Origin: a virus
Taxonomy: Duplodnaviria > Caudoviricetes
Strand: one strand, 5' to 3'
Virus record (IMG/VR): IMGVR_UViG_3300025087_000689
DNA: 64,000 bases
Below the pieces are notes generated by a model that had not been told where the DNA came from, ran no database searches, and saw nothing but the letters and a program-made list of their open reading frames with translations. Positions 26,282 to 47,237 of this stretch are shown piece after piece (the first letter of the stretch is position 1; each line of letters opens with the position of its first letter). The position numbers and the translations under genes are program-made.

Positions 26282-26282
26282 C

Positions 26283-26792
26283 ATGCCTCGGAGAATGACT
26301 TTATTAACAGATTTAGATATTAACAAATATAAAGAAGGTGACTTATTCTATGCACCTAAACTTGGATATAAAAGACAAGGTTATATTAAATTTGTTTCTT
26401 GTCCAAGATGTGGAAAGTTAAAGTTTGCTTACGCTCATAAGAATGGAACTTTAGAGAATCACGAAACTAATCCTTATTGTCGTTCATGTATTCAAATTGT
26501 TAACAATGAAAAATTAGGATTTCAAAACCATGCACGTTATAAAGCAGCTAAAATGAAAGATAGTCACGGTTATATTTCTATAACCATAGATAAAAATGAT
26601 TCTTATGTTTCAATGTGTAGACATAGTAAACGTGGACATATTATTTCTGAACATAGATATGTTATGGCTAAATCATTGGGACGATGTTTAAAAACACATG
26701 AAGTGGTACATCATTTACCGTTTACGATTTTACAAAATAGAATTAAATATTTAGAAAATGTTCTTAAGGAGAATAATATACAATATGATTAA
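26283..26792 (+). CDS. Zn-finger/HNH endonuclease with the HNH core deleted in frame
   Basis: CPRC...CRSC, EHRYVMAKSLGR...EVVHH runs straight into LPFTILQ, lacking the NG.K.DNR.ENL seen in the paralogue 55439-56008. Confidence 0.65.
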   Translation: MPRRMTLLTDLDINKYKEGDLFYAPKLGYKRQGYIKFVSCPRCGKLKFAYAHKNGTLENHETNPYCRSCIQIVNNEKLGFQNHARYKAAKMKDSHGYISITIDKNDSYVSMCRHSKRGHIISEHRYVMAKSLGRCLKTHEVVHHLPFTILQNRIKYLENVLKENNIQYD

Positions 26793-29349
26793 GAAAAAAA
26801 AGTTGCTAATTTTCACGGATTCTTTTTGTGTTTACACTGGTTTTTCCAACGTGGGTCGCCATGTGTCAACATATCTTCACAACACCGGTAAATACGAGAT
26901 AGCCTATCTGTGTTGGTTTCATGCACCTATGAATAATATAATTCCTCCTTTTACAATTTACACGACTATGCGTGATCATAGTAGATGTTGTGGCAGAGGT
27001 CCTGTTGTAATGAAAATGGTTCCTGGTCAGCAACCAGAATATTTTAGACATCAGCAAGGTGTATTACTTCCAGTGGGTCAGGGTGGACAGGTTTGTTTTA
27101 ATGGGCCGAATATGGAACATGATAAATATGCTTATGAAAGTCTTCATGGTGTTATTCTTGATTTTAAACCAGATATAGTATGGGGTTTGGGGGACACTTG
27201 GATGCAATTTCATACCAATATGATGGATATTAGACCGTGTTTTTCCTATTATGAATATTGTTTTTCTCCTGATACTGATATAATGACTAAAGAAGGTATT
27301 AAAAATATATCAGATATTAAAGAAGATGATTTAGTTTTTAGTATAAATCCAGAAACTAAAGAATGTTCATATAAAAAAGTTATACGAACTACCGAAAGGA
27401 ATTATATTGGTGATATGATTAGTATACAATCTATGCGAGTTGACCAATTAGTCACACCTGAACATAGAATTTTATTAGACTCCGGTGATTTTATAACTGC
27501 TATTGATGTTACTAAAAGATCTATTTCAAAATTACCAAGACCTTATAAAATATCAAATCATATTGGTGATAATGAAAGTACGATTAATATGTTAGATTAT
27601 TGTGATGATGATGCTTTTATATTAATACCTGTAAAATATAAATTACAATTATGTAATTCTTATTTATGTAATAGATGTGGTTATATTGGAACAACAGATC
27701 AACCAACAGAATTAAAATGTTCACAATGTAGATCAAGAAATGTACAGTTACATAACGGTGTTTTTAATAAAACTTTTTTAGAATCTCATCATTATCATCA
27801 TGAACTTGTTTATAAATTTAGAAAACATGAACTTTCTAAAGAACACTTAGAATTTATAATTTCTATTAATGAAGAATATGGTGATATTCGACTGCGAGGT
27901 GCCGATGATGAACATGATTCATTACCTATTCTAATTAATAAAAATGATTTATTAAAATTAGGGGGTTGGTTTATTAGTGAAGGTTCAGTGGAAAATAAAA
28001 ATTGTCATGTGTGTTCTTTATCTCAATACAAATATATAAAACAATTAACTGAAGATATTGAAAATATTGATATTCGTTTTAGTAAAGTTCCTAGTGGTTA
28101 TAAAATATATGGTAAAATAATGTATAACTTTTTTACCAGAAATTTTGGTTTTAATAGTTATACTAAAAAAATAGATGAGAGTGTATTTAATATTTGTTCT
28201 GTTGTTGAATTAGAATTATTATTTGATAGAATGATGTTAGGTGATGGATCTTTTAATAAGGCTTCTTATTATACTGTATGTAAACAATTAGCAAACGATG
28301 TGGTAAAACTTTGTTTTATTATAGGTAAACAAGGTATTATTCATTCTAATGAAATTATTAATAGAGTTGGTATATGGTCTGTAAATAACACTATATCTAT
28401 TAAACAAGAACACACTGAAATAATACAATATAATGGAATAGTGAAATGTTTATCAGTTGAAGATAATGGTACAGTTTTAGCCGGTAGAAATAATAAACTA
28501 AACTATATAGGTCAGTGTCCAATAGACGGGGAACCTATGCCCCATATTATTAAAATGGTTAATCAAGAAATCAATTGGGTTGATACACTTAATAAAGCCG
28601 ATAGAGCTTATGCCTTTTGTAATTTTGGTCGTGATACAATGATTAAAACAGGAGAGAAATATGGCGTTAATCTTAAAAAAGTTGGTGTTATATATCACGG
28701 CGTAGATATTAATACTTATCACAAACTTGATAATAAAAAAGGTTTAAGAAAAAAATGGTTTCCAGAAATTAAAGATGATGTGTTCCTAGTTGGTTTCTTT
28801 AGTCGTAATCAACCACGAAAAGCTGTTCATAAATGGTTTGAAGCTATCGCTCTTGGCGTTAGGAAGGGTTATTGGACGAAAGATACTTTACAAATGTATG
28901 GTCACTTTCCATGGAATGATGTTGGGTGGTACATACCCGATTTAATTAAAACTCACGGATTAGAAGAATTATTTATTAAACGAGATAAATTACAAGTGGG
29001 TATGGGTCCTTCTGATTCAGAAATGAATGAGTTATATAATTGTTGTGATTTAACGACGCTCCCAACTAGGGGGGAAGGTTGGTCTTTGACAATCAGCGAA
29101 TCTATGTCAGCTGGCACACCAACCTTAATATCAGCTTATAGTGCACATCATGATTGGGCTGAACATGCTGCAGCTAGAATTAAAATAGCTGTATTAGATG
29201 CTGAACCTTTAACTAATATAAATAGGGCTATAGTAGATGTTGATGATTACACAGAAAAAATAAAAGCCTTCTATGATAATATTAGTTTAGAAGAATTTGA
29301 AACTAAGTTTGGAAAAGTTCAAAGTTATAAAGATGAAACAAATAAATAA
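26785..29349 (+). CDS. GT4 (GT-B) glycosyltransferase, intein-containing; last helices lie in the next ORF
   Basis: KLLIFTDS..V.TGFSNV; Y|CPIDG; HGVD..TY; SRNQPRK; PTRGEGWSLTISESMSAGTP. Confidence 0.85.
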   Translation: MIKKKKLLIFTDSFCVYTGFSNVGRHVSTYLHNTGKYEIAYLCWFHAPMNNIIPPFTIYTTMRDHSRCCGRGPVVMKMVPGQQPEYFRHQQGVLLPVGQGGQVCFNGPNMEHDKYAYESLHGVILDFKPDIVWGLGDTWMQFHTNMMDIRPCFSYYEYCFSPDTDIMTKEGIKNISDIKEDDLVFSINPETKECSYKKVIRTTERNYIGDMISIQSMRVDQLVTPEHRILLDSGDFITAIDVTKRSISKLPRPYKISNHIGDNESTINMLDYCDDDAFILIPVKYKLQLCNSYLCNRCGYIGTTDQPTELKCSQCRSRNVQLHNGVFNKTFLESHHYHHELVYKFRKHELSKEHLEFIISINEEYGDIRLRGADDEHDSLPILINKNDLLKLGGWFISEGSVENKNCHVCSLSQYKYIKQLTEDIENIDIRFSKVPSGYKIYGKIMYNFFTRNFGFNSYTKKIDESVFNICSVVELELLFDRMMLGDGSFNKASYYTVCKQLANDVVKLCFIIGKQGIIHSNEIINRVGIWSVNNTISIKQEHTEIIQYNGIVKCLSVEDNGTVLAGRNNKLNYIGQCPIDGEPMPHIIKMVNQEINWVDTLNKADRAYAFCNFGRDTMIKTGEKYGVNLKKVGVIYHGVDINTYHKLDNKKGLRKKWFPEIKDDVFLVGFFSRNQPRKAVHKWFEAIALGVRKGYWTKDTLQMYGHFPWNDVGWYIPDLIKTHGLEELFIKRDKLQVGMGPSDSEMNELYNCCDLTTLPTRGEGWSLTISESMSAGTPTLISAYSAHHDWAEHAAARIKIAVLDAEPLTNINRAIVDVDDYTEKIKAFYDNISLEEFETKFGKVQSYKDETNK
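27259..28515 (+). mobile_element. Intein with LAGLIDADG endonuclease, C-terminal Gln (419 aa)
   Basis: Starts CFSPDTDIMTKEG, has LVTPEHRI block B, ends AGRNNKLNYIGQ followed by Cys; GWFISEGS and MMLGDGS motifs. Confidence 0.88.
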
Positions 29350-29358
29350 TGATAAGGG

Positions 29359-31344
29359 GTGCAAATGTCGATAGGAATTAGAGAGCATTTTAGCAAAGAA
29401 GGCCGTAAGCTTTGTGAAGATAATTTAGGTTGGGATACGATCTGTGCTAAGTGGGATAAAGTTATTGGTGAAGTTAATATATCAAAGAATAATCCTTATC
29501 CTAAACTGAATATTCCTAAACCAACTAATCTAGAAGATCTTCTTGAGAAAGAGAAGAAGGATAGATTTTTATATGTTATGCCTGGAACATATGGAGATGT
29601 ATTTCTATCAACAGCTGTTATAGATGGCATTAAGAAAAAATATCCTGATAAGGATATCTATTTTGCTACCGGTGGACAGTATATTCAGATCTTAGAAGGT
29701 AATCCTAATATTCATAAAATTTTACCTTATGATGGAGTCTTCAATAATATACCGTTGATGAATAACTTATTTGATATTGTCTTCACTCCAGCCGTGGCAA
29801 CTCAAGCTTCAAATAATTGGACGAGAAATGGACATGGTGAACATTTAGCCCGAACATATGCCACTCATTGTGGTGTAGAACTCGGTAATTTATATATGAG
29901 GATCATTGAATCACAGGATGCACTGGAAGGTGATTATCTTGTTGTTCATACAAAGACAGGTCAAGAAGCCAAGAACTATAGTGAATACCAAAAGATTATT
30001 AATCAAATTGATATCCCAGTGGTTCAAGTCGGATCCAAAGACGATCAACTTCTTAAAAATGTAATTGATAAGAGAAGTAAGAACATACAAGAAACAGCCA
30101 GTATAATCAAGAAAGCAAAGCTCTTTCTCGGTGGTGATAGTATATGTGCACATATAGCTGGATATGTTGGAATTCCATCTGTGTTGTTATATGGTTCTAC
30201 ATTTTCGGCACTCACAAAACCACTTTATAAAGATCAGAGTAAACTTAATGTTATAGAACCAGCTAATAGATATAGTTGTGAGAGACCATGTCATTTAGCA
30301 AAATGTAATAGATCTCCTAATCCTTGTATTAATAATATTGACGCAAAGATGGTGGTTGAACACATAGGTACATTAGGAATACTTACTAAGGCTCCAGTAC
30401 CTCCCACTTTATCCGGCTATACTACAACATTGAATCCAGAGAAATATTATCCTTGGCGTCAGTCTATTAAATCATTACTAGGGGTGTGTGATGAAGTTGT
30501 TGTAGTTGATGGTGGTTCTACTGATGGTACATTAGAAGCCTTACAAGAGTGGAAGAAAACAGAACCTAAACTGAAGGTCTTTAAACGTAAGTGGAGAATG
30601 GACGAGCCAGCTATGGATGGTATGATGAAAAGTTATGCCAGAGCTCTATGTACTAAAGAATTCTGTTGGCAGCAGGATTGCGATGAACTAATACATGAAT
30701 CAGATTATTCAAAACTTAAGGATTTATTAATTAATTTTCCAAGTCAGGCTAAAGTGCTAACACTACCTGTTATTCATTTATATGGTACAACGAAAACAAT
30801 TCTTACAGATAAAGGATTATATAAGGCTCGTTTAAGTAAGAATCTACCAGAGATAACCCATGGTATTCCTAAACAACTTAGACAAACTACACCTCAAGGC
30901 AAATTGTTTTGTGATAAAGATCGTTCAGATGGCTGTGATTATATTAATTCACAGACTTTTGATCATGCAGATGGACAGATAAGTTTTATAAATGCTGAAC
31001 TTATGCAAGCACAACAGACTAATATGCCTAAGTTTAAATCTATGATGGTATCTGCTTTTAAACAGTTTCCAAGTGTATGGCATTTTTCTTGGCATGATTT
31101 AGTTCGTCGTATTAATGTTGATCTTGAATTTTGGGATGGTCAGTGGAATAGATTAAATACTGGACAGACTATACCTCCAAATCGTTTTTTTCCAAATACA
31201 AAACGTGAAGATGTAACTCCAGAACTAATTAAACAACGTGCAGATTTCCTTAAGGATAAAACATTAGAAGAAAAACCAATGGATCTAATACAGTTAAATT
31301 GGTTAGATACACCGGAGGTGATTAAGTCATGGCTATCCAAGTAA
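29359..31344 (+). CDS. Multidomain glycosyltransferase: GT4 tail + GT9-like + GT2
   Basis: FSKEGRKLCEDNLGWD (GT4 end); GTYGDVFLSTAVI...GGDSICAHIAG...LYGST (GT9); DEVVVVDGGSTDGT, QQDCDE (GT2). Confidence 0.85.
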   Translation: MQMSIGIREHFSKEGRKLCEDNLGWDTICAKWDKVIGEVNISKNNPYPKLNIPKPTNLEDLLEKEKKDRFLYVMPGTYGDVFLSTAVIDGIKKKYPDKDIYFATGGQYIQILEGNPNIHKILPYDGVFNNIPLMNNLFDIVFTPAVATQASNNWTRNGHGEHLARTYATHCGVELGNLYMRIIESQDALEGDYLVVHTKTGQEAKNYSEYQKIINQIDIPVVQVGSKDDQLLKNVIDKRSKNIQETASIIKKAKLFLGGDSICAHIAGYVGIPSVLLYGSTFSALTKPLYKDQSKLNVIEPANRYSCERPCHLAKCNRSPNPCINNIDAKMVVEHIGTLGILTKAPVPPTLSGYTTTLNPEKYYPWRQSIKSLLGVCDEVVVVDGGSTDGTLEALQEWKKTEPKLKVFKRKWRMDEPAMDGMMKSYARALCTKEFCWQQDCDELIHESDYSKLKDLLINFPSQAKVLTLPVIHLYGTTKTILTDKGLYKARLSKNLPEITHGIPKQLRQTTPQGKLFCDKDRSDGCDYINSQTFDHADGQISFINAELMQAQQTNMPKFKSMMVSAFKQFPSVWHFSWHDLVRRINVDLEFWDGQWNRLNTGQTIPPNRFFPNTKREDVTPELIKQRADFLKDKTLEEKPMDLIQLNWLDTPEVIKSWLSK

Positions 31345-31952
31345 TGTATGACATGCATTTGAATAACTTAGACTTTATGTCTGAGGTTAACTTCATTATC
31401 TCACAATATGATATTGAAGATATAGTTGAGACTGGTACTAATGTAGGTCTGGGTTCCACTCAGGTACTAGCTAGAACGGGTTTAGACGTGGCTACAATCG
31501 AGTGTAATCCTCAGAACCATGCTCAGGCAGTAGAGAATCTTAAAGCCTTCTCAAACGTCTCCTGTCATCTGGGTTTTTCTATGCATAAGCAAAGAATGCT
31601 AGATTTCATAAAGAACGACAAATATACTATACCGAAGGATATAGCTATTGATTCTCACGATCCACTAACTTTTTATTCACAAGAACTAAACTTTAATGTT
31701 GATGAAGAGTTATTGGATAAGTTTTCTAATAACAATAAAAAACAGTTACTCTTTCTTGACTCTGCCGGTGGTGTTGGTTATATGGAATTTCTATATGTAA
31801 TGAATCTTAAACCAGAATATCAGAAGAATAAAGTAATACTAATGGATGACTGTACTCATGTTAAACATTTTAGATCTGTTATAGATCTGGAAAAACAAAG
31901 TATCAAAGTTACTAAAATTCTTAACGATAGAGTATGTTGGGCAAAACTATGA
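31329..31952 (+). CDS. Putative class I SAM-dependent methyltransferase
   Basis: IVETGTNVGLGST motif I; TIECN; LFLDS. Confidence 0.55.
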   Translation: MAIQVMYDMHLNNLDFMSEVNFIISQYDIEDIVETGTNVGLGSTQVLARTGLDVATIECNPQNHAQAVENLKAFSNVSCHLGFSMHKQRMLDFIKNDKYTIPKDIAIDSHDPLTFYSQELNFNVDEELLDKFSNNNKKQLLFLDSAGGVGYMEFLYVMNLKPEYQKNKVILMDDCTHVKHFRSVIDLEKQSIKVTKILNDRVCWAKL

Positions 31953-32872
31953 AGATACAGGTTGCTTCAATATGTAAACAGGAAGAAGATTTAATCAGGC
32001 CGTGGCTTGAGCATTTACTAGTTCTTGATTGTATTGAAGGTATCTATCTTCATGATACTGGTTCGACTGATGCAACTCTCGATTATATCAAATCATATAA
32101 AGATCCACGAATTCATTTATTTGAATCACAAGACTTTAAAGACTTCTCATCGGCTCGTAATTTCATCTTATCTAAACTAGATAAACCTGAATGGATGATT
32201 TTTTTAGATATAGACGAATTATTTAATTGTAATGTTAATGAAGGATTGGAAGTACTAAATAATAAAGTTCTTTATTGGAATGATATCCAAAAGATACAAC
32301 TTCCTCATATTCAATTATATGATTTTAATAAGATTTGGTTCCATAAACCTCCAACCCCACCAAATTGGGATGGTCAGGTAGCAAATTATTCTTGGGATAA
32401 AGACACTATAACATTGTATCGTGGAGATTTAGTTACTTCAAAATTTCATAATTCTCTTCATGAAAGATTTACTCATTCTGAAGTAACATCAAGATGTTTT
32501 AACTTACTTGGGGTTTCTCCTATCTATGATCTAAGAGATTTGGAAGATGACTTCTATGTGATTCATTATAGTAAAGCTAAGTTACACGCTGAAGCTAGAA
32601 GGACTGGTAAGTCTTTTGAATATTGTGTTGGAAAGAAACGCAGAGAATATAGATTAATTAAACCTGCTCTTACTAATGGAAAAATGTACGATAGAGAATG
32701 GGCTCTTAATGCTACAGAAGCCGATATAGAACAACTTGGAAGAGATCAATTGATTCAGTTTATAGAGATAGAAGGACATGTATTCCCTAAAACCAATTTT
32801 AATGTATATGATTTAAACAATGAATTTATTAAGAGGTATTTTAATGACTCATTATGTGTTAATTACAACTAA
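31949..32872 (+). CDS. GT2 glycosyltransferase
   Basis: ICKQEED, DTGSTDAT, FSSARN, FLDIDE. Confidence 0.85.
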   Translation: MKIQVASICKQEEDLIRPWLEHLLVLDCIEGIYLHDTGSTDATLDYIKSYKDPRIHLFESQDFKDFSSARNFILSKLDKPEWMIFLDIDELFNCNVNEGLEVLNNKVLYWNDIQKIQLPHIQLYDFNKIWFHKPPTPPNWDGQVANYSWDKDTITLYRGDLVTSKFHNSLHERFTHSEVTSRCFNLLGVSPIYDLRDLEDDFYVIHYSKAKLHAEARRTGKSFEYCVGKKRREYRLIKPALTNGKMYDREWALNATEADIEQLGRDQLIQFIEIEGHVFPKTNFNVYDLNNEFIKRYFNDSLCVNYN

Positions 32873-33602
32873 AGATAGACTGAATCTATTAAATAATTGT
32901 GTCGAATCCATTAGAAGAACGACACCTGAATCTAGAATCTTCATAGTTAGTGATGGTTCTCGTAGTGATACTATTGACTATATAACTAACTCTGACTACT
33001 TTGAAGGGTATGTTATTAATAAAACTAATATAGGTATTGCTCCATCTATTGAAATTGGTATTAATCTAATTAATAACTATCATCGTTTTAGATTTAATGA
33101 AGGTAAGGAGAAGGATGAAGATCCTTTTATATCTTATGTGCAGGACGATGTTGAGTTTATAGTTAGTGATTGGCCAAAAGTTCTTAATAATGCTCGATTA
33201 GGAATATCGTTGTTATCTGATATGGGACAGGGTGAGTTTAAAATAGGTTTTACAACTGGTCATGTAGCACCGGAACATTCAAATTCTATTGTTGGTGAAT
33301 ATAATTTATCAAATGGTTATAGAATACAATTAAGAAACCATATTAGAGCAACTCATATGGAAGCTCCTATGTCGTTCTGGATGCAACAGTTTCCTGTATC
33401 TGAAGTAGACCCTGAACAAAGAGATGGTTTAAGAGGACACCCTGGTAACTCACGCGGGAGTAATATTGATTGGTGGTTCTTACGTGATCATCCTAAAAGT
33501 GTATTACAACAAGGTATGACAAATCTAGTAGTGTCAGGAATTCTAAAACATGTTGGGTTTGACCATAGCACTTGGCAATCTAGACCACTTCAAGAAGTCT
33601 AA
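32844..33602 (+). CDS. GT2 glycosyltransferase
   Basis: ITTKDR, VSDGS, NIGIA, VQDDV. Confidence 0.75.
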   Translation: MTHYVLITTKDRLNLLNNCVESIRRTTPESRIFIVSDGSRSDTIDYITNSDYFEGYVINKTNIGIAPSIEIGINLINNYHRFRFNEGKEKDEDPFISYVQDDVEFIVSDWPKVLNNARLGISLLSDMGQGEFKIGFTTGHVAPEHSNSIVGEYNLSNGYRIQLRNHIRATHMEAPMSFWMQQFPVSEVDPEQRDGLRGHPGNSRGSNIDWWFLRDHPKSVLQQGMTNLVVSGILKHVGFDHSTWQSRPLQEV

Positions 33603-33609
33603 AATAAAA

Positions 33610-33639
33610 TTGGTATTATAGATTAATAATAATTATAAT
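33610..33639 (+). promoter_or_regulatory. Promoter TTGGTA-N18-TATAAT
   Basis: Same architecture as the 19092 and 25749 promoters, in an AT-rich gap. Confidence 0.55.
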
Positions 33640-33666
33640 ATAGGTGTAGGACCGCAAGAAGAAAAC

Positions 33667-34500
33667 TTGAGAAAGTGTGTTAAATTGCGTACACTAGAAA
33701 ATACAAAGTTAGCCATACTAATTCCCTCGCTACAAGACTATGATTTTCTTAAACTTACGTTAAAGAGCATAGTCGAAAATACCAAAACTAACATCGAAAT
33801 TAAGATTCATTTGAACGCTGTTACTCCTGAAATGGAAGAATTAGCTATTCAATATGATCCAGAGTATACTAAATCATTAAGTAATCTTGGAATATCTCCA
33901 GCTATAAATATATGTTTTGACAGATCAGACGCTGATTTCATATTTATAGCAGAAAGTGATTTAGTTTTTCTACCTGATTGGGATACTTATTTAATCGAAG
34001 CTATGAATAAGTTTGGCGAAAATAATATCTTTCCAGTTACTAAGATACATCCATACGATGACGCACAGACTGTATCTTTAGTTAAAGATTATGGAAAATC
34101 TCCAGATACATTAGATTATAAAAGACTTCTATCTGAAGTAGATTCTCTTAGACAACCAAGATATCAGATTGCTAACTGTTCTCCTGCTTGTTTTCCAAGA
34201 CACTTACATGTTCCATTTGATGAAGCCTACTTTCCTGGCTGGGCTACTGATGTTGAGATGCATGTTAATGCATGGCAGCTTGATAAGAATGTACGCTATA
34301 TTAAATCAGAAAAAAGTTTAATCTATCATTTCAGATCTCTTGCATCTAAGAAGTTTTACTCAGACGATGAACGCTCAATGCAATGTGCTCGCTCAAACGA
34401 CATCTTTAATAAAAAATGGGAAGCTATTCATCCTGGTTTAAATCTAAATACATATAAAGATATTATAATGAAAAATTATAAAGGATATATTACCGAATGA
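33667..34500 (+). CDS. GT2 glycosyltransferase
   Basis: AILIPS, NLGISPAIN, AESDLVF, FPGWATD, IYHF. Confidence 0.75.
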   Translation: MRKCVKLRTLENTKLAILIPSLQDYDFLKLTLKSIVENTKTNIEIKIHLNAVTPEMEELAIQYDPEYTKSLSNLGISPAINICFDRSDADFIFIAESDLVFLPDWDTYLIEAMNKFGENNIFPVTKIHPYDDAQTVSLVKDYGKSPDTLDYKRLLSEVDSLRQPRYQIANCSPACFPRHLHVPFDEAYFPGWATDVEMHVNAWQLDKNVRYIKSEKSLIYHFRSLASKKFYSDDERSMQCARSNDIFNKKWEAIHPGLNLNTYKDIIMKNYKGYITE

Positions 34501-36764: not shown

Positions 36765-37123
36765 TGAAAGAAAATAAAAGATTTTTTAATCTTGTTCCAG
36801 AATTAGATGGACAAGTTAATGTTTATGTCTATCAGAATACTGAATTTAAAGGATGGCATCTGCATCAGAATCAAGAAGATATGATCTTCTGTGTCAGTGG
36901 CAAACTTAAAATCTTTTTACACGCTGAAAACGATGAGTATGTTTGTACTCGCGTATTAGAAAAAGGTGAGTCATTTGTAATTGAAACAGATGTATGGCAT
37001 GGTATTCAAGCTGAAAGTATTGGAACAACAGTTATATATTTCTATGAAAAGAAATTTGATGTTAAGGATACAACAGAATTACCTAAGGATCATTTTAAAA
37101 AATATGAACATCTTGAATACTGA
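36764..37123 (+). CDS. Cupin, RmlC-like sugar epimerase
   Basis: KGWHLHQNQED..FCVSG...WHG. Confidence 0.65.
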   Translation: MKENKRFFNLVPELDGQVNVYVYQNTEFKGWHLHQNQEDMIFCVSGKLKIFLHAENDEYVCTRVLEKGESFVIETDVWHGIQAESIGTTVIYFYEKKFDVKDTTELPKDHFKKYEHLEY

Positions 37124-37131
37124 TAATAAAT

Positions 37132-39060: not shown

Positions 39061-39689
39061 ATTATATAGTTTGGGGTGGTACTGGTCAATGTAAAATTGT
39101 TCACGGTATTCTTGAACGACAAGGAATGAAATTAATTGCCATAGTTGATGATGTTATAAAGACGTCTCCTTTTTCTTCTATTCCGTTGTATACCGGAGAA
39201 GAACTTAAAAGTAATATTAGTAAGTTAGATGCTCATTTTGGAATAGTTGCTATCGGTAATCCTAATGGAAAACGTAGAGAACAATTGTCGAATACGTTAA
39301 GTAGATATGGATTCTATCCTATTAATGTTATTTCAGATGTCGCTTGGTTATCTGCTTCATCTAAATATATTAATGGGATCCAAGTATCCCCCAGAGCCTG
39401 TATAGGTGAAGATGTATTTATTGAAGAAGGTTGTATTATCAATTCCATGTCTAATATAGAACACGACTGTATACTTAGAAAGTACTCTGAAGTTGGTCCT
39501 ACAGCTACATTGTGTGGACACGTAGAAGTTGGAGAGTACTCTTGGATAGGTGGAGGAGCCATTATTAGACAAAGAATAAAGATCGGAAAGAATTCGATTG
39601 TAGGAGCTGGAGCGGTAGTTGTTAAAGATGTTCCAGATAATTCAATTTATGTTGGAAATCCAGCCAGGTTTTTAAAGGAGAACACATGA
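39057..39689 (+). CDS. NeuD/PglD-type hexapeptide sugar acetyltransferase
   Basis: IEHDC, HVEVGEYSWIGGGA..RQRIKIGKNSIVGAGAVV.KDV. Confidence 0.88.
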   Translation: MNYIVWGGTGQCKIVHGILERQGMKLIAIVDDVIKTSPFSSIPLYTGEELKSNISKLDAHFGIVAIGNPNGKRREQLSNTLSRYGFYPINVISDVAWLSASSKYINGIQVSPRACIGEDVFIEEGCIINSMSNIEHDCILRKYSEVGPTATLCGHVEVGEYSWIGGGAIIRQRIKIGKNSIVGAGAVVVKDVPDNSIYVGNPARFLKENT

Positions 39690-40792
39690 ATTGTATGTAT
39701 AGGGAAGGACCCTTAGTTACAAAGGATGACATTTCTGCCGTCTCGGCCGCGATGAAAACGTGCTTTTATGAAGATGCATATCAATTCATAAATCGATTTG
39801 AAGCAGATTTTGCAAGGTACCACGGCCGTAAATATGCAATTATGACACCAAATTGTACATCCGCCATACATCTTTTGTTAGCAGGAGTAGGAATTGGCAA
39901 AGGTGATGAGGTTATAGTTCCTGATCTAACTTGGGTTGCTACAGCTGCACCTGTCATTCAAACTGGGGCGAAGATAATTCCCTGCGATGTAGATGCTAAT
40001 TGGTGTTTAAATCCATATGATGTAAAAAAAAGAATAACAAAAAATACAAAGGCAATCATATTTGTTGATCTATATAGTAATATGGGTCAAATAAAAGAAC
40101 TTCAAAATATAGCTGATGAACATCATATTCCATTAATTGAAGATGCTGCCGAAGCATTGGGTTCTATTTATGAAAATAAAAAAGCTGGTTCATTTGGATT
40201 AGCATCAGTATTTAGTTTTCACCGTACCAAAACTATTACTTGTGGTGAAGGTGGTATGTTACTTTTAGATGATGAAAAACTTTATGATAAATGTATCATG
40301 CTTAGAAATCATGGTAGGAATGGAAAGACTTATTCTTTCTTTCCTGAAATGGTTGGTTACAAATACTTTCCTACAGATATACAAGCGGTACTTGCTCATT
40401 CTCAATTTAAAAAAATAAATAAATTACTTTTTATTAAACATGGACATTATGAATTTTATGAGAATGAATTAAAAGATAGTAAACACATACTTACTTTTAA
40501 TCAATCTCCAAAAACTAGTGGTTGTTGGGTAACATCTTTAATACTCAGTGAAGAGTTTACAGCTGATCAAGTTCTGAAAGAAATGAAGAAGATGGGAATA
40601 CCTATGCGTAGATTCTTTTATCCCTTAACTGCTATTCCTGCTTTTGGATTTAATACTAATAAATATAGTAAGATGAATTCAATGTCTTATTACTTATCTG
40701 AACATGGCATCAATCTTCCGGGTGCTTATATACTTAAAGACAAAGATTTAAAACTAGTTGTTAAGAATCTAAAGGAAGTATTACATGATTAA
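39686..40792 (+). CDS. DegT/DnrJ/EryC1/StrS sugar aminotransferase
   Basis: NCTSAIH, GDEVIVP, IEDAAEALG, FSFHRTKTITCGEGG. Confidence 0.9.
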   Translation: MNCMYREGPLVTKDDISAVSAAMKTCFYEDAYQFINRFEADFARYHGRKYAIMTPNCTSAIHLLLAGVGIGKGDEVIVPDLTWVATAAPVIQTGAKIIPCDVDANWCLNPYDVKKRITKNTKAIIFVDLYSNMGQIKELQNIADEHHIPLIEDAAEALGSIYENKKAGSFGLASVFSFHRTKTITCGEGGMLLLDDEKLYDKCIMLRNHGRNGKTYSFFPEMVGYKYFPTDIQAVLAHSQFKKINKLLFIKHGHYEFYENELKDSKHILTFNQSPKTSGCWVTSLILSEEFTADQVLKEMKKMGIPMRRFFYPLTAIPAFGFNTNKYSKMNSMSYYLSEHGINLPGAYILKDKDLKLVVKNLKEVLHD

Positions 40793-41735
40793 ACTATTTA
40801 ATATACCAACATATATCTTAGATACCTCCAGTTATAATCATGTTCTTAATGGTTCTATAGTAACAGAGTTTGAACAAGCTTTCTGTGAATATGTAGGTAT
40901 CAAGTACGGTTGTGCTTTTGATAGTGAAACTAGTATCATCCAAGCTATCTTTCATAATGCTAATTCAACTATATATCTTCCAAGTATGTTGCCTCCAGTT
41001 GTAGCTAATGCTATAGTGTTAGGTGGAAACAAATTATTTTTTTCTAATAACATAAATTGGATAGGAAGAAGTTACCCTCTTCATGTTTTTAATGATGGAA
41101 GAACTTTAATTGATTCAGCTCAGGAAGTATTTCGCCATTGTTGTGATTATATGAACGATACAGATGTTATTCTATTTAGTTTTTATCCAACTAAACCATT
41201 ATCTGGTATAGATGGTGGTATGATGTGTTCGAATAATAAAGACGTTATAGATTGTTACCGTAGACTATCTATGAATGGTATGGATAATAATGTTAATAGT
41301 TGGGATCGTCGAGTTATAGAACCAGGGTGGAAAACATATATGAGATCAGTTCAAGCGGATGTCGCTTTAAGAAATCTTCGCAATCTAGACGCTCGTAATG
41401 ATCAGGTTAACGAAATTAGGGAGAAGTATAATAAGGCTTTTGAATTAAATAATAGAAGCCTGCATCTATATCGTATTAGAGTTGAATGTAATGAATACCT
41501 AGTTAAAAATGCTGGGATACAGTGTGGTATTCATTATAAACCACTACACACAATGCCAGTATATGGCTTACATCGAGCTGATCTTGATGATATTAGAATG
41601 TGTAAACACAATCCGTTGTTTAACGTCGAGTGGGAATCCCGACATACTTTAAGTATTCCACTACACGAAGCACTTACTGATGCTGAAGTAGATAGAGTTA
41701 TTGAGTTTTTTAAACCTTTAATCTGGAGAGAGTAA
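40785..41735 (+). CDS. Second DegT-family aminotransferase
   Basis: FEQAFCEYVG, IDSAQ, FSFYPTKPLSGIDGGM, GIHYKP, LSIPLH. Confidence 0.8.
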   Translation: MIKLFNIPTYILDTSSYNHVLNGSIVTEFEQAFCEYVGIKYGCAFDSETSIIQAIFHNANSTIYLPSMLPPVVANAIVLGGNKLFFSNNINWIGRSYPLHVFNDGRTLIDSAQEVFRHCCDYMNDTDVILFSFYPTKPLSGIDGGMMCSNNKDVIDCYRRLSMNGMDNNVNSWDRRVIEPGWKTYMRSVQADVALRNLRNLDARNDQVNEIREKYNKAFELNNRSLHLYRIRVECNEYLVKNAGIQCGIHYKPLHTMPVYGLHRADLDDIRMCKHNPLFNVEWESRHTLSIPLHEALTDAEVDRVIEFFKPLIWRE

Positions 41736-42304
41736 TGAAATTGAATGTGGCGGCAGGCCCCGATATACTAGATGGTTGGATTAATATGGATCTATATCCC
41801 CAAAATTCTAAAGTAATGAAAGGTGATATTCTTAGTATACCATTACCAGATAGATCTTGTGAGACCGTAATGGCTAACTATGTCTTTGAACATCTTAACT
41901 TTGTCGATGAACCGAAAGCATTCTCTGAAGTTACTCGTGTGTTAAAACCAAGAGGAGAACTAATAGTTAAGGTTCCCGACTTTGAAGATACCGTTAAGAA
42001 GTGGTTAGCTGCGGAGGATAGCTGGAAGTGCTTCTACAAGCTCTGCAAGCCATCAGATCCATCTTACGGCTTTGGACATGGGTTTGTTATGGACCAAAGA
42101 TGGGGAGTTATTATGACGCACATCTTTGGTAGCTTTGCTGCACCAGGATTAGTACATCAAAATGCGTATACTTATGATAAACTGTTAGCTATTTTTAGTT
42201 ATTTGAAATTAATTGGTACTAGAATAGAAACAGTTATAGAATCAGATCGCGGATATGATATTAAAGCACTTGTAGCTAGAGGTTTTAAAAATGATGAAAC
42301 ATAA
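41735..42304 (+). CDS. Class I SAM-dependent methyltransferase
   Basis: LNVAAG..ILDGWINMD, HVFEH-like YVFEH, RVLKPRGEL..KVPD. Confidence 0.8.
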   Translation: MKLNVAAGPDILDGWINMDLYPQNSKVMKGDILSIPLPDRSCETVMANYVFEHLNFVDEPKAFSEVTRVLKPRGELIVKVPDFEDTVKKWLAAEDSWKCFYKLCKPSDPSYGFGHGFVMDQRWGVIMTHIFGSFAAPGLVHQNAYTYDKLLAIFSYLKLIGTRIETVIESDRGYDIKALVARGFKNDET

Positions 42305-43196
42305 GATTATTCATATAGGTTCTCCTAAATCAGGATCAACAACTCTACAAAGAGAATTGTTTATGAAACATCCAAAGATACATTACTTCGGAGAAGAAGG
42401 TGAAGGCTGTTATCATAATACAGATCGGAATCTTTTATGGTCTTTATATCATGATGATGATATTTTTTATGATAGAGTACGTACGAAACAGTTGTTTACT
42501 GAGCACTTTACTAATGAGTCTCCGACTGTAATATTTTCAGATGTAGATATCATGTCCAGCAGACAACCCAGTATAGTAGCCCAAAGACTATATGAATTAG
42601 AACCAGAAGCTAAGATATTTATTATTGTTCGCAATCAGTTTGATGTTATTAAATCATATTATGTTAATCATGGTTCTTATTTAAAGCCATCACCAGAACC
42701 ACATTTTAGAAAACACATTCCATTTCGAGATTGGATGGACTACTGTCTTAGATTTAAGTCGCAGAGTCCTCTCATGTTCTTTAAGTATAAAGAGATTATA
42801 GATATTTATACAAAATTATTTGGATCTGATAAAATTAATGTTGTCGCACATGAAACAATGATTTATAATCCAGAAGCGTTTTATAGATATATGGATAAAC
42901 TACTTCAGATAGAAGATACTCATTCATATCTTAGATATGCTAAGGTACATAGACCAAGACAACCAAAACGTAATCTGTTTATAAGTAAGTGTATTAGTTT
43001 ACTTCCTTTGTATTCCTCTTCAAGGGATAATATTTGTCAAATGATTAATAACTTAACTTCAATCCTTCCTAACTTTAGCGACGATATTGAATTTAGTGAA
43101 TCTGATAAGCGACAGTTACGAGCTTTTTATAGGTCTGGAAATTCCAGACTAGTAACTGAAAATAAAATTTCAATAACTGAAACCTACCTGGAGTAA
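42291..43196 (+). CDS. PAPS-dependent sulfotransferase
   Basis: IHIGSPKSGSTTLQ (5'-phosphosulfate loop) and IIVRNQFDVIKSYY (3'-phosphate motif). Confidence 0.8.
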   Translation: MMKHKIIHIGSPKSGSTTLQRELFMKHPKIHYFGEEGEGCYHNTDRNLLWSLYHDDDIFYDRVRTKQLFTEHFTNESPTVIFSDVDIMSSRQPSIVAQRLYELEPEAKIFIIVRNQFDVIKSYYVNHGSYLKPSPEPHFRKHIPFRDWMDYCLRFKSQSPLMFFKYKEIIDIYTKLFGSDKINVVAHETMIYNPEAFYRYMDKLLQIEDTHSYLRYAKVHRPRQPKRNLFISKCISLLPLYSSSRDNICQMINNLTSILPNFSDDIEFSESDKRQLRAFYRSGNSRLVTENKISITETYLE

Positions 43197-43197
43197 T

Positions 43198-43833
43198 ATG
43201 AGTGGTGTAATTTGTGGTAGAGTATTTGATAAGTTATGGGAAGTTCCTTATTGGCTTCGAAGTGTAAGATATAGATTTCCTAATGAAGAAGTACTTTTAT
43301 TTTCTAATGGCGATACTAGTTCTTTTACTCAGTTAGATTGTAAGGTCATCGAAGTAATTAAGCAGGATAAAATAGAAAATACACACGTACCACATAACGA
43401 TAGATATAGATTTCAACTAGGTGCCATGAGTTTGTTCGCTACAGTAGCTGAGTATACTGAAATGAAAGGATACGATTACATAGTATCCATGGTAGCTGAT
43501 GAATGGTTTGTAACTAATACTGTCTTTGATCGTATTAAAGAACTTGAACAATACGAGCTCATAATGAATAGTTGGAATGGAAAACCATGGGGTAGTTATG
43601 TTCAAAGAGGTAATGTAAGTCACTTTAAAAATAAAGAGTACATGTATAGTAGATTTGGTTTCAATTGTGAAGACGCAGTAGGTAGTGCATTGCACGATAA
43701 GAATATTAAATTTATGCAACGTAAAGATAAGTTTGGTTATGATGGATGTATGGGAACAGTTCATTTCGATACTATAGAAGATCCTGACGCAAAGGATAGA
43801 TACCTGTCTGCTCTTGGTAAAACATATGCTTAA
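43198..43833 (+). CDS. Hypothetical, possible GT-A-fold protein
   Basis: Operon context; MVADEW resembles a DxD-type motif. Confidence 0.4.
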
Positions 43834-44704
43834 TCATTTAAAGCTGTTAGAGGCTGAAAGTATTCATATCATTAGAGAAGTTGTTGCTGAATGCCAGCGA
43901 CCAGTGATGCTTTATTCTGTTGGTAAGGACTCATCTGTAATGGTTAGGTTAGCTCAAAAGGCTTTCTATCCTGGTAAAATACCTTTTCCTTTAATGCATG
44001 TAGATACAACATTCAAGTTTAAGGAGATGTATTCTTTTAGAGATGAGTTTGTGAAACAGATTGGAGTACAACTTATTGTTTATAAGAATAACAAAGCTAT
44101 TAGTGATAATGTTAATCCATACACATTAAGTACACAAAAATGTTGTTCTTTTCTTAAGACGCAAGCACTAGTTGATGCTATTCGAGAAGGTGGTTATGAT
44201 GCCGCTTTCGGTGGAGCTCGAAGGGATGAGGAAAAATCTAGAGCTAAAGAAAGAATTTTTTCATTTAGAGATAGTAAAGGACAGTGGGATCCTAAGAATC
44301 AAAGACCTGAGTTATGGAATATATATAATACTAAGGTTAATAAAGACGAATCAATGAGAGTGTTTCCTTTATCTAATTGGACTGAATTAGATGTATGGCA
44401 ATATATATATGAAGAAAATATTCCTATTGTTCCGATGTATTTTGCTAAAGAACGAAATATGATTGTCAAAGATAAACAACTGATTCCAATTGAACAACCA
44501 AATAAAGAATCACAAAAAATAATGTGTCGGTTTAGAACTCTAGGTTGTTATCCTTGCACAGGAGCAATCATATCAACAGCTTCTACCTTACCTGAAATTA
44601 TAAAAGAAATTAATAATATTCGTATATCTGAAAGATCTACTAGAATAATAGATCATGATGAAGAAGGTTCGATGGAAACTAAAAAAAGGGAAGGTTACTT
44701 TTGA
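43826..44704 (+). CDS. cysD: Sulfate adenylyltransferase subunit 2
   Basis: [54 protein letters not shown]. Confidence 0.97.
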
Positions 44705-46455
44705 AAGATCTACTTAGATTCTCTACAGCAGGTAGTGTTGATGATGGCAAGTCTACTTTGATCGGCCGTCTATTACTTGATTCTAGAAATATTTTTGATG
44801 ATCAAATCACAAGCGTACGTAAGGCTTCCAAGATAGATGATTTAGATCTCTTTCTATTTACTGATGGTCTAAAAGCCGAGAGAGAACAGAAGATAACAAT
44901 TGATGTAGCATATAGATACTTCTCTACACCCAAACGTAAATTCATTATAGCCGATTCTCCTGGTCATGAACAGTATACTAGAAACATGGCAACAGGAGCA
45001 TCACATGTTAATCTAACGATCATCCTAATAGACGCAAGAAAAGGTCTATTGCAACAATCGAAACGACACGCCTTTATAGTATCTCTACTGAGAGTTCCTC
45101 ATGTTATAGTTGCTATAAATAAAATGGATTTAGTTAACTACGATAGAATAGTTTTCGATAAAATCAAACAAGAGTTTACTGAATTTGCTTCCAAGTTAAA
45201 TATGCAAAATCTACAGTTTATACCTATGAGTGCACTAACAGGAGAGAACGTTATTGAATGTAGTGATTCTATGTCATGGTACCAAGGAGGATCCTTATTA
45301 GATATATTAGAGAATGTACATATAGCTAGCGATCAAAATCTGATTGATCTTCGTTTTCCTGTTCAGTATGTTAATAGACCAGGAATGGATTTTAGAGGTT
45401 ATTCTGGTACGGTAGCAGCCGGTACTATTAAGAAGAATGATAGTATATTAGTTCTTCCATCTATGAAGAAATCAAAAGTTAAATCAATAATAACTTATGA
45501 TGGAGAATTAGGAAGAGCACTTGCTTCAGAATCTGTTACGGTTGTACTTGAAGATGAAATAGATATAAGTCGTGGAGATATGATAGTTCATACACATAAT
45601 ATACCTGCTATTAAAACTGAGTTTGAGGCTATGGTGGTGTGGATGAATGAACAAGCTCTTGATTTAAATAAAACATATATAATTAAACACTGTTCTAAAC
45701 TAACTAAGGTAAAAATTGATAAAGTTTATTATAAGATTGATGTAAATACATTACATCGTCAGGAACAAAATACTTTAAATATGAATGAAATTGGCCGGTT
45801 AGTATTAACACCTAATCAGTCTTTATTCTTGGACACGTATCAGAAGAATCGCACAACTGGAAGTTTTATTTTAATAGATATCATAACTAATAATACTATA
45901 GCTGCTGGAATGGTTATTGATTCTGATACTTCAACAAATAAGGTAAATAAGTATGGTAGTACTTTGTGGTTTACCGGGCTGTCTGGATCTGGAAAATCAA
46001 CGATTGTTGAAGCACTACAAACAGATTTGGGTTGTTCTTGTTGTATTTTAGATGGAGATATATTAAGAAAAGGATTATGTTCAGATCTTGGTTATTCTAT
46101 TGATGATCGTAAGGAAAATATCAGAAGAGTTGCTGAAGTTGCCGCTTTACTTAATAAAATGAATATAACTGTTTTAGTTTCTATGATATCTCCTTTTATT
46201 TCTGATAGAGAAAATGCTAAATTAATTATTGGTAAAAATAGATTTATAGAAATTTTTGTTGACACACCTATAGATGTATGCGAACACAGAGATCCTAAAG
46301 GATTATATAAAAAAGTAAGAGGTGGCGAGATCAAGAACTTTACTGGAATTGATTCTCCATATGAAGTTCCACTGGAACCTGATATAAAATTACAGACTGT
46401 TAAATATAAAGTAGAAGATCTTATTAATCAAGTAAAAAATTACTTAAAGGAGTGA
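44701..46455 (+). CDS. cysNC: Bifunctional sulfate adenylyltransferase subunit 1 / APS kinase
   Basis: [28 protein letters not shown] (GTPase); [32 protein letters not shown] (APS kinase). Confidence 0.96.
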
Positions 46456-47237
46456 TGATGGTTATCGAAACAATGATGTTAATTGTAATGTTGGCTGTTT
46501 TTTGTGAATGGTTAGATTCTGCTATTGGGATGGGATATGGTACTATCTTATCTCCAATTCTAATATTACTAGGTTTTCCAATTACTTTACTAGTACCATC
46601 TATTTTACTCACTCAAGCTATGGGTGGACTAACTGCTTCATTTTTTCATCATAAATATAAAAATGTTGATTTAGGATGGAATCTACAATCTAATTTAAAG
46701 GATGTGCTATTTATTACATTACCAGGGGTATTAGCTACTATTCTCGCTGTTGGACTAGCTGTCACTGTTTCTAAAGTATTTCTTAGTACATATATAGCAA
46801 CACTTGTATTTATTATGGGTATAATAATGCTAAGTGGTATTCGTTTTATTTACAGTATTAAAAAGACAGCAGCCGTGGGTGTTATTTCTGCTTTTAATAA
46901 AGGGTTATCTGGTGGTGGTTTTGGTCCAGTAGTAACTGGAGGTCAGTTAGTTCTTGGACAAGAATCTAGGACCGCTATTGGTTGTACAACGGCCGCTGAG
47001 TTTCCTATCTGTATGGTTGGTTTTGCCGCTTATATGATTACTAAAGGAATTTCTGATTGGATTCTGATTGGATTACTTGGAATTGGATCTATAATTGGTG
47101 CCATTATAGGCCCACTAACTACTAAACATCTGGATCGTCGTTTGATTATTAAGATAGTAGGTGTATTACTTCTTATACTAAGTACTCTTACATTTCTTAC
47201 AACCTATAATGTTATTCATTTGAAGATAGGTATGTGA
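46452..47237 (+). CDS. TauE/SafE-family sulfite exporter-type membrane protein
   Basis: Two hydrophobic repeats, GMGYG and GGGFGP motifs, A.GCT. Confidence 0.85.

Follow-up and report, generated by a model that had tools for sequence, protein, structure and literature searches.

Sulfated glycans are characteristic of animal matrices, of algae and of a small number of bacteria. In Sinorhizobium (NodP/NodQ with NodH) and Mycobacterium (CysDNC with Stf0), a private supply of 3'-phosphoadenosine 5'-phosphosulfate (PAPS) is encoded beside a carbohydrate sulfotransferase and glycan genes, independently of assimilatory regulation. Among viruses, the fibril-glycosylation clusters of Moumouvirus australiensis (ma457-ma468) and Cotonvirus (ORF712-728) encode a sulfate adenylyltransferase/adenosine 5'-phosphosulfate (APS) kinase and a sulfotransferase (Notaro et al. 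2022, PMC10117803), and the sulfation predicted for the Megavirinae awaits validation according to the authors (PMC10117803; also PMC11625862). Glycosylation of mycobacteriophage virions is reported by Freeman et al. 2023, as cited in PMC12619734, and the BAHT-family enzymes TibC and AAH are cytoplasmic, GT9-type enzymes that O-glycosylate serines of beta-helical proteins (PMC4358343). Our literature search returned no paper on a phage sulfotransferase combined with PAPS synthesis in tailed phages. The locus analyzed here, a block of genes for sulfate activation, sulfation, sugar tailoring and glycosyl transfer, lies in a 64,000-nucleotide stretch of DNA (hereafter the window) from a virus of the Caudoviricetes, IMG/VR record IMGVR_UViG_3300025087_000689.

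The block (26758-47237) consists of 20 tightly packed genes on the plus strand spanning ~20 kb, and we read it, at roughly even confidence, as a phage-owned pathway for a sulfated hetero-oligosaccharide whose acceptor is most likely virion proteins. Neighboring genes overlap at 16 junctions out of 19, with no gap longer than 64 bp, a spacing that is operon-like, while promoter and terminator scans gave site numbers not above those of shuffled sequences. The window corresponds to bases 54598-118597, on the reverse strand, of the 160,162-bp record (CheckV completeness 69%), and searches for missing functions covered this record plus the genes called in another 19.5 kb of the 221,205-bp genome to which it belongs. 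Genes were annotated with Pfam and NCBIfam profiles at curated cut-offs, PDB sequence matches, AlphaFold models searched with Foldseek, and structure neighbors in the ESM Atlas, the last used as leads only. The preliminary description of this DNA had the block begin at 26785, whereas the first open reading frame (ORF) begins at 26758; each gene class that it named is present where it was placed, by Pfam or NCBIfam. In the list below, GT denotes glycosyltransferase and aa amino acids.

26758-29349, plus strand: GT4-type (GT-B) glycosyltransferase with an intein of ~400 aa (Pfam Glyco_trans_1_4 and Glycos_transf_1 at aa 678-817)
29359-31344, plus strand: GT9-fold domain (aa ~60-340) joined in one protein to a GT2 domain (aa ~345-660, DCD motif) (Pfam Glyco_transf_9, Glyco_tranf_2_4, Glycos_transf_2)
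31329-31952, plus strand: class I S-adenosylmethionine (SAM) methyltransferase, Methyltransf_24/CmcI-like, probable sugar O-methyltransferase (ESM Atlas lead)
31934-32872, plus strand: GT2 glycosyltransferase (Glyco_tranf_2_4 34.7 bits, Glycos_transf_2 31.8 bits)
32820-33602, plus strand: GT2-like protein, weak (Glycos_transf_2 19 bits, below the 23.3 cut-off; EpsD-like match 22 bits)
33667-34500, plus strand: GT2 glycosyltransferase (Glycos_transf_2 46 bits)
34497-36764, plus strand: deoxythymidine diphosphate (dTDP)-sugar 3-C-methyltransferase, TcaB9/KijD1/TylC3 type, with a LAGLIDADG intein (Methyltransf_13, _23, _14, Intein_splicing, LAGLIDADG_3)
36764-37123, plus strand: small cupin (119 aa), possible second sugar ketoisomerase/epimerase (Cupin_2 33 bits, FdtA 29 bits; WbuC family below cut-off)
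37132-37782, plus strand: free-standing NUMOD3 homing endonuclease (three NUMOD3 matches, 82 bits)
37715-38191, plus strand: FdtA/QdtA-type dTDP-4-keto-6-deoxyhexose 3,4-ketoisomerase (Pfam FdtA, PF05523, 130 bits)
38143-39060, plus strand: short-chain dehydrogenase/reductase (SDR) of the nucleotide-sugar epimerase/reductase family, probable ketoreductase (Pfam Epimerase 88 bits; all NCBIfam equivalogs below cut-off)
39057-39689, plus strand: NeuD/PglD/VioB-family amino-sugar N-acetyltransferase (TIGR03570 177 bits, cut-off 160.8; PglD_N and Hexapep)
39686-40792, plus strand: DegT-family pyridoxal phosphate (PLP) sugar aminotransferase (PF01041 313 bits; PLP lysine motif SFHRTK)
40785-41735, plus strand: short, divergent DegT-family protein of 316 aa (PF01041 91 bits over the C-terminal half; PLP lysine kept, SFYPTK)
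41735-42304, plus strand: Methyltransf_11 class I methyltransferase (PF08241 40.6 bits)
42291-43196, plus strand: PAPS-dependent sulfotransferase, carbohydrate type by context (PF00685; PKSGST, RNQFDVIKS)
43198-43833, plus strand: 211-aa protein, probable GT-A-fold glycosyltransferase (ESM Atlas lead)
43814-44704, plus strand: CysD, ATP sulfurylase small subunit (NF003587 460 bits, cut-off 195; TIGR02039 450 bits, cut-off 396.6)
44701-46455, plus strand: CysNC, fusion of the ATP sulfurylase GTPase subunit and APS kinase (NF004035 834 bits, cut-off 715)
46452-47237, plus strand: TauE/SafE (TSUP) permease (PF01925 86.7 bits, cut-off 32.6)

Compared by gene content rather than homology, the block resembles the clusters of the Megavirinae, which are likewise viral and combine a bacterial-type amino-sugar pathway (aminotransferase, acetyltransferase, dehydratase/reductase) with several GTs, a PAPS-synthesis enzyme and a sulfotransferase. 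Those viruses infect amoebae, whereas the present one is a tailed phage; for PAPS synthesis they encode one protein, in which sulfate adenylyltransferase and APS kinase are fused, whereas the bacterial pair CysD and CysNC is found here together with a permease; and their sugars are uridine diphosphate (UDP)-linked (Qui2NAc, diNAcBac), whereas the genes here point to a dTDP-linked branch with 3-C-methylation. NodPQ-NodH and CysDNC-Stf0 share with the block a dedicated CysD/CysN(C)-type PAPS supply adjoining a sulfotransferase, but these systems are cellular and have known acceptors (lipo-chitooligosaccharide and trehalose, respectively), and the phage sulfotransferase belongs to another subfamily than NodH and Stf0, its nearest structures being 3rnl, heparan sulfate 3-OSTs and TPSTs. 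Glycosylation of mycobacteriophage virions and of the capsid of chlorovirus PBCV-1 offers a possible parallel, in which soluble virus-encoded GTs act in the cytoplasm on structural proteins of the virus itself; these systems use few GTs and are not known to include sulfate activation or a sulfotransferase, and nucleotide-sugar tailoring of such extent is not known in those of phages. Virus-encoded glycosylation with predicted sulfation is already known, and the phage block is its fullest version, with bacterial-type CysD/CysNC, a permease and a branch for the C-methylation of dTDP-sugars.

The sulfate-activating enzymes, the permease and a sulfotransferase with both PAPS motifs, all noted in the preliminary description, were confirmed by profiles and motifs. 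CysD and CysNC are full-length and exceed the curated NCBIfam cut-offs. The former has the PP-loop SVGKDS and the latter the G1, G3 and G4 GTPase motifs and the kinase P-loop GLSGSGKST, and the two proteins would together convert sulfate to APS and then to PAPS. The sulfotransferase has the 5'-phosphosulfate-binding motif PKSGST at aa 12-17 and, at aa 114-122, the 3'-phosphate-binding motif RNQFDVIKS, which aligns with RNPVDRAFS of PDB 3rnl; K13, R114 and S122 occupy invariant columns of the family and are conserved in 50 homologues. Its AlphaFold2 model (pLDDT 90.6) retrieved 65 PDB chains with Foldseek at E<=1e-3; every one of the 50 listed is a sulfotransferase, led by the bacterial 3rnl, heparan sulfate 3-OST-3/5, NDST1 and TPST1/2. 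These structures are a mixture of carbohydrate and tyrosine sulfotransferases; the context of the family in seven other loci, described below, is always nucleotide-sugar tailoring.

Sulfotransferase, GT-A-like ORF, cysD, cysNC and tauE overlap or abut, the start of tauE overlapping the cysNC stop and ORF 43198-43833 being translationally coupled between the sulfotransferase gene and cysD. This ORF has no match in Pfam or NCBIfam, and its ESM Atlas neighbors, mostly phage proteins, are of the GT2, GT25 and Nucleotid_trans types (TM 0.64-0.77; a lead only). The TauE/SafE protein, with ~6 hydrophobic segments the only polytopic membrane protein of the 160-kb record, is a permease that we infer to carry sulfate or a related sulfur oxyanion. 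The record contains no second PAPS_reduct domain that could represent cysH, no sulfite reductase (NIR_SIR) and no CysQ-type phosphatase (Inositol_P); within it, as originally proposed, PAPS has a sulfotransferase outlet and no reductive one.

CysNC shares no more than 57% identity with any of 80 retrieved cellular homologues. A quick maximum-likelihood tree places it on a long branch, as sister (SH-aLRT 95) to a group made up of Bacteroidota, Chlorobiota, one Kiritimatiellia bin and two bins without classification. Seven other cysNC loci in IMG/VR (L002-L008) were considered as comparables and rejected: they are high in guanine plus cytosine (GC), have only cysD and cysNC in common with the block and are probably host DNA, the cysNC genes of L002-L005 nesting in the Pseudomonadota or next to SAR324 in the tree. 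The cysNC protein matches in the phage collection were likewise set aside as bacterial contigs or fragments filed as phage.

The preliminary count of about seven GT domains holds as six to seven when ORFs assigned through the ESM Atlas are included, together with four methyltransferases; a total of seven needs one sub-threshold GT2 and ORF 43198-43833, which is GT-A-like by ESM Atlas only. The best PDB match of the GT4 enzyme, and its best solved relative, is glycosyltransferase B736L of chlorovirus PBCV-1. All four GT2 matches of the 160-kb record fall within the block. A PDB sequence search found no match for the GT2 proteins at 31934-32872 and 33667-34500, and for the GT2 half of the GT9-GT2 fusion only a weak match to GmaR (E 0.011). 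None of the GTs has two or more hydrophobic segments in a hydropathy scan of ORFs of at least 80 aa. ORF 31329-31952, between the fusion and the first free-standing GT2, has no Pfam match, and its ESM Atlas neighbors are class I methyltransferases (TM up to 0.86), with feature matches mostly to phage proteins; this too is a lead only.

NCBIfam heptosyltransferase equivalogs score far below their cut-offs against the GT9-GT2 fusion protein, and the model of its GT9 domain (pLDDT 66.6, moderate) leads in Foldseek to the GT9 protein 3tov, TibC and WaaC/WaaF. TibC (4rb4/4rap) is retrieved at E 2e-10 and TMq 0.52-0.56, and WaaC at 5e-9 and 0.47-0.49. Near aa ~308-327, in the part encoded by 29359-30393, lies a four-cysteine (Cys4) knuckle, Cys-x3-Cys-His-x3-Cys-x6-9-Cys, which is kept in the four homologues that reach this region and is probably a metal site; the model has pLDDT <50 there. 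The GT-B fold of GT9 type is common to this domain and to TibC and AAH, and the Cys4 knuckle may correspond to the four-cysteine metal site that those enzymes have toward the end of the C-lobe. The spacing of the cysteines differs, however (C-x3-C-x4-C-x6 here, C339/C342/C358/C370 in TibC), the N-terminal beta-barrel of those enzymes was not seen here, and the GT9 domain here is fused to a GT2. The domain has only eight detectable homologues, one of which (35% identical) is itself a GT9-GT2 fusion encoded directly after a GT1-type gene on a phage-like contig with an SSB gene. A distant homologue of the GT9 region, a protein of 572 aa (L106/L107, 8155-9873), is also encoded on a phage-like contig, in the neighborhood of DNA polymerase III alpha, a PHP domain protein, RNase T and a carbamoyltransferase.

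Profile matches likewise verified the tailoring enzymes of the preliminary description, namely an FdtA-type isomerase, a C-methyltransferase, two DegT proteins, an acetyltransferase and other methyltransferases. The C-methyltransferase matches TcaB9 (204 bits) and KijD1-type enzymes (202 bits) in the PDB, with N-terminal zinc, SAM and C-terminal domains recognized by Methyltransf_13, _23 and _14, and the FdtA protein matches 2pa7, 4zu7 and 5tpv (FdtA, QdtA and WlaRA) with 78-94 bits. Between FdtA and the 119-aa cupin lies the NUMOD3 homing endonuclease, a selfish insert that is outside the pathway. The GT4 (863 aa) and the C-methyltransferase (755 aa) owe their length to inteins. That of the GT4 occupies aa ~172-579 (~400 aa, matches at aa 172-246 and 541-579), starts with Cys and ends in GQ before the next C. 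That of the C-methyltransferase, at aa ~94-460, contains a LAGLIDADG endonuclease and has the boundaries G/C...THN/C, with the canonical Cys1 and His-Asn/Cys+1; the exteins are contiguous in homologues, and activity of the enzyme would require splicing. A GT4 and a sugar C-methyltransferase are unusual hosts for inteins. Elsewhere in the genome, intein signals also occur in the DNA polymerase, ribonucleotide reductase and a 293-aa protein, and ThyX (50635-51885, minus strand) has a LAGLIDADG insert without a His-Asn-Cys/Ser/Thr end.

An exhaustive profile-free search yielded 1,601 homologues of the sulfotransferase, the best with 35-43% identity. Seven homologue loci were read, five of them apparently cellular or of unknown origin and two (L100 and L101) representing one small phage. 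Locus L090 encodes a DegT, a Methyltransf_11, two SDRs, a methyltransferase, the sulfotransferase and GT2s, and L099 encodes a DegT, the sulfotransferase, a further DegT, FdtA, an SDR, a Methyltransf_11, NeuB and a second sulfotransferase. A contig of JGI 3300072015 has RmlA, a GT2, a C-methyltransferase, a DegT, two SDRs, a DegT, CmcI, the sulfotransferase, an RmlC-like cupin, CysNC and CysD, so that CysDNC is coupled to this sulfotransferase in at least one other locus. Two NCBI genome bins (L111, L112) have the same module, one with an ABC exporter and the other with acyltransferases and a transposase. Proteins common to the cellular loci and the phage block are 30-46% identical. The SDR is 40-42% identical to the SDR beside the sulfotransferase in L090 and L099, the DegT at 39686-40792 is 45-46% identical to its homologues in the same two loci, and the Methyltransf_11 protein, which always adjoins the sulfotransferase module, is 35-36% identical in L090, L099 and L100. 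Judged from this gene content, the sulfotransferase family appears to be tied to a C-methyl amino-6-deoxyhexose pathway, and since its nearest relatives always adjoin genes for C-methyltransferase, DegT, SDR and Methyltransf_11, a sugar-tailoring module, once with CysNC and CysD, PAPS synthesis is linked to glycan sulfation. The bacterial loci (L111, L112, L099, L090 and JGI 3300072015) and the block have in common a sulfotransferase belonging to one family, together with the C-methyltransferase, DegT, FdtA/RmlC-like cupin, SDR and Methyltransf_11. They differ in their GC content of 0.44-0.54 and in having RmlA-type nucleotidyltransferases, ABC exporters, acyltransferases or transposases, whereas the phage block has no export and priming functions and adds the GT9-GT2 fusion, inteins and the permease.

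The remaining two loci belong to an unrelated phage of 25-32 kb with a 13-kb glycan cassette (L100, 3427-16270; L101, IMGVR_UViG_3300025697_001371). The cassette contains the run Methyltransf_11, sulfotransferase, C-methyltransferase, DegT and 316-aa DegT, with the Methyltransf_11 gene directly upstream of the sulfotransferase gene and the 316-aa DegT in the same place as the short DegT at 40785-41735, and also two GT1s, a GT2, a GT8 and radical SAM and B12-radical SAM enzymes. No cysDNC was seen in the 20 kb examined. The cassette lies between tail-fiber-like or minor-tail genes and a head-tail adaptor, in a phage that also has a tail terminator and HNH endonucleases. Together with the recurrence of the GT4 and GT9-GT2 pair on the phage-like contig with the SSB gene, this cassette suggests that such glycan genes are a phage habit rather than a one-off.

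That the block is phage-borne and its PAPS linked to glycan sulfation, as initially put forward, is supported by these results, and the reported lack of an ABC exporter, a phosphoglycosyl transferase and a flippase-like polytopic protein is borne out within the record and the further 19.5 kb. The record has no Bac_transf, no ABC_tran above cut-off and, among ORFs of at least 80 aa, no polytopic membrane protein (>4 hydrophobic segments by hydropathy) other than TauE; the called genes of the 19.5 kb include no glycan or export family. The initiating transferase, flippase or ABC exporter, polymerase and ligase of an O-antigen or capsule locus were thus not found in the searched DNA. The further step from these absences to a cytoplasmic acceptor does not hold as it was argued, because assembly of a lipopolysaccharide (LPS) core or lipooligosaccharide (LOS) would show the same gene content. 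In LPS-core and LOS synthesis, soluble GT9, GT4 and GT2 enzymes act directly on lipid A carrying 3-deoxy-D-manno-oct-2-ulosonic acid (Kdo), and the host MsbA flips the product with no need for Wzx, Wzy or an undecaprenyl phosphate (Und-P) transferase. The phage could also borrow the Und-P machinery of its host.

We nevertheless favor virion proteins made in the same cytoplasm as the acceptor, a reading that we hold with a probability near one half, and the fiber- and baseplate-region proteins encoded just upstream are the leading candidates. The related L100 cassette sits among virion genes, and particle glycosylation in mycobacteriophages, chloroviruses and the Megavirinae provides viral precedents. 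The Foldseek match of the GT9 model to TibC, a protein O-heptosyltransferase, is no worse than that to WaaC, and the Cys4 knuckle lies where TibC has an iron finger. Nine large proteins of the fiber/baseplate region, encoded after the tail hub at genome positions corresponding to window -14260 to 1674 and at window 6300-11145, have 13-30 Ser-Gly dipeptides each, 2-5 fold the expected number, with Gly-Ser at expectation in most. The usual context of the dipeptide is hydrophobic/Pro-Ser-Gly-Val/Ile-aromatic, and it may represent either a sequon for glycosylation or a turn motif of beta-helices. One Ser-Gly-rich fiber protein gave sub-threshold hints of a beta-helix in the ESM Atlas (0.83 and TM <0.5). 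Each of these points is weak by itself, and several observations weigh against the reading. The Foldseek scores of TibC and WaaC are too close to separate the two, in a model of moderate quality with the cysteine region unmodeled, and the Ser-Gly enrichment may be a mere turn motif of beta-helix-like fibers. In bacteria, relatives of the module are found in loci for cell-surface polysaccharides, accompanied by ABC exporters or acyltransferases, which points to envelope glycans as the ancestral use. RmlA and RmlB were not found in the 160-kb record, leaving the pathway incomplete without the host, and the absences noted above apply to 160 kb plus 19.5 kb of a 221-kb genome, with a remainder of ~41 kb.

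The strongest competing explanation is remodeling of the host envelope, in which the soluble GT9, GT4 and GT2 enzymes would add a sulfated rare sugar to the lipid A-core of the host (LOS type) or to an Und-P-linked glycan, MsbA or Wzx would export the product, and the changed surface would block superinfection or alter adhesion. GT9 is chiefly the family of LPS heptosyltransferases, the missing Bac_transf, ABC and polytopic proteins fit LPS-core assembly equally well, the bacterial relatives are surface-polysaccharide genes, and the CysNC tree together with other hints points to a Gram-negative, Bacteroidota-like host. However, a 221-kb phage of lytic type would benefit little from a slow change in the surface of a dying cell, the block encodes no Kdo or lipid A enzyme and no envelope-targeting protein, and the L100 cassette is found in the midst of virion genes. 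We regard envelope remodeling as possible, but distinctly less probable than decoration of the virion.

It is far less likely that two unrelated cargoes lie side by side, with cysD, cysNC and tauE as a sulfur-assimilation auxiliary module feeding the cysH/cysIJ of the host for cysteine and the glycan genes independent of it. The host could reduce PAPS, and viral cysD, cysN, cysC and cysNC are classed under assimilatory sulfate reduction in the main survey of sulfur genes in viruses, which makes no mention of sulfotransferases (bioRxiv 10.1101/2021.01.05.425418). Against this stand the overlapping or abutting genes from the sulfotransferase to tauE, the missing cysH in the 160-kb record, and the JGI contig, where a 37%-identical sulfotransferase and the same tailoring genes are accompanied by CysNC and CysD. 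PAPS, moreover, the product added by the APS kinase domain, is exactly what a sulfotransferase needs.

Hypermodification of DNA, with the GTs placing a sulfated glycan on hydroxymethylated bases of the phage DNA and so evading restriction, is similarly improbable, although DNA was one of the two acceptors first suggested. The enzymes of the block are soluble, and hypermodification of DNA with diverse glycans by phage GTs has precedent (Pyle et al. 2024, as cited in PMC12619734). Yet the 160 kb encode no ThyA-family dCMP/dUMP hydroxymethylase, the phage having ThyX instead, seven GT domains and a C-methyl amino-sugar pathway go far beyond known DNA glycosylation, and the relatives of the module are surface-glycan genes.

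The genome is that of a groundwater jumbo phage, of which a complete version is present in public assemblies, for example as contig k141_407841 of ENA ERZ27254746. The same sequence is carried by JGI contigs of 207,139 and 206,247 bp and by two ENA contigs that are each 221,346 bp long and start at different points, consistent with a circle of 221,205 bp (221,346 minus a 141-base end overlap of the ENA contigs); three genes were mapped between the IMG/VR record and the JGI and ENA contigs. The 160-kb record is a piece of this circle, and the ~41 kb outside the searched DNA, at about 104,690-146,337 of contig k141_407841, fall between the tail genes and a DNA ligase region. The GC content is 0.317 in the block and 0.335 in the remaining genome, and tetranucleotide frequencies of the block correlate with those of the rest of the genome at r = 0.992, higher than any other 20-kb segment (0.941-0.985), as against -0.34 to 0.68 for bacterial loci with homologous genes. 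Over half of the sampled words from 40000-47237 are present in each of at least 12 runs from groundwater and soil, and positions 19000-38999, which include the left junction, are covered evenly at low depth by one run not flagged as a possible source. The composition, the inteins and homing endonuclease, and the multiple assemblies show that the block is native to the phage and not a mis-assembled host locus. Mis-assembly of phage DNA with an LPS or capsule locus of the host can accordingly be set aside as hardly credible, since nothing favors it beyond the record being a metagenome assembly, and against it are a composition indistinguishable from the remaining phage, phage genes on either side of the block on the same contigs in several assemblies with differing ends, even coverage of the left junction in an independent sample, the distance of CysNC from every cellular protein, and the selfish elements within the block.

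The block is flanked by genes of phage type, as follows.

4771-6291 and 9613-11145: two ORFs matching a PHROG of virion structural proteins
19767-23393: primase-helicase
24335-24922: ClpP
49483-49824: small HSP20-like protein (weak precomputed Pfam match), at the end of the plus-strand run that contains the block
50635-52805, minus strand: ThyX with its LAGLIDADG insert, and a sigma factor

To the right of these follow ribonucleotide reductase, an intein-bearing DNA polymerase, a helicase, a UvsX-like recombinase, a Lon-like protease and a ligase. Neither the sulfotransferase nor the primase-helicase has close relatives in IMG/VR, and a DNA search of the phage collection found nothing similar except a 33-bp exact match to Flavobacterium phage FPSV-D18 at 37297-37329, inside the NUMOD3 gene, which is a faint hint of a Bacteroidota host or of a common homing endonuclease.

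The combined results suggest a model of the pathway in which the host would provide dTDP-4-keto-6-deoxyglucose and adenosine diphosphate (ADP)-heptose or UDP-sugars, a supply that we infer because RmlA was not found and the 160-kb record contains no NTP_transferase. The dTDP-4-keto-6-deoxyglucose would enter via FdtA and the C-methyltransferase, the DegT enzymes would attach amino groups, one of them to be acetylated by the PglD-type enzyme, the SDR would reduce the keto group and the small methyltransferases would attach methyl groups, giving a C-methylated, N-acetylated, methylated amino sugar. From this rare sugar and nucleotide sugars of the host, the soluble GTs would build a short glycan at the cytoplasmic face, the GT9 domain possibly using ADP-heptose. 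With PAPS made on the spot by CysD and CysNC from sulfate brought in by the TSUP permease, sulfation would be independent of the Cys regulon of the host, and the sulfotransferase may act on the rare sugar at the nucleotide-sugar stage or on the glycan that carries it. A more specific and decidedly tentative extension, which we think rather unlikely to be correct in full, is that the fibers are coated with a sulfated, proteoglycan-like glycan, where the TibC-like GT9-GT2 protein would start on Ser-Gly serines of beta-helical fiber proteins, the other GTs would add the 3-C-methyl amino sugar, and phage-fed PAPS would serve to sulfate it.

The cluster lends itself to testing, as its genes are intact apart from the inteins, the full 221-kb genome is public and the candidate acceptors adjoin. 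If the fibers are indeed coated in this way, the particle would have a polyanionic surface that alters adsorption, host recognition or survival in the aquifer, and many viral cysD, cysN and cysC genes counted as helpers of assimilation would instead serve sulfation. Such genes are routinely scored as assimilatory when viromes are read, and their context here points to sulfation. Should the pathway be as proposed, a phage that supplies its own permease, PAPS synthesis and sulfotransferase along with a rare-sugar pathway and seven transferases would have the most self-sufficient glycan factory described for a phage, and a bacterial-virus counterpart of the yet unvalidated sulfate genes of the Megavirinae.

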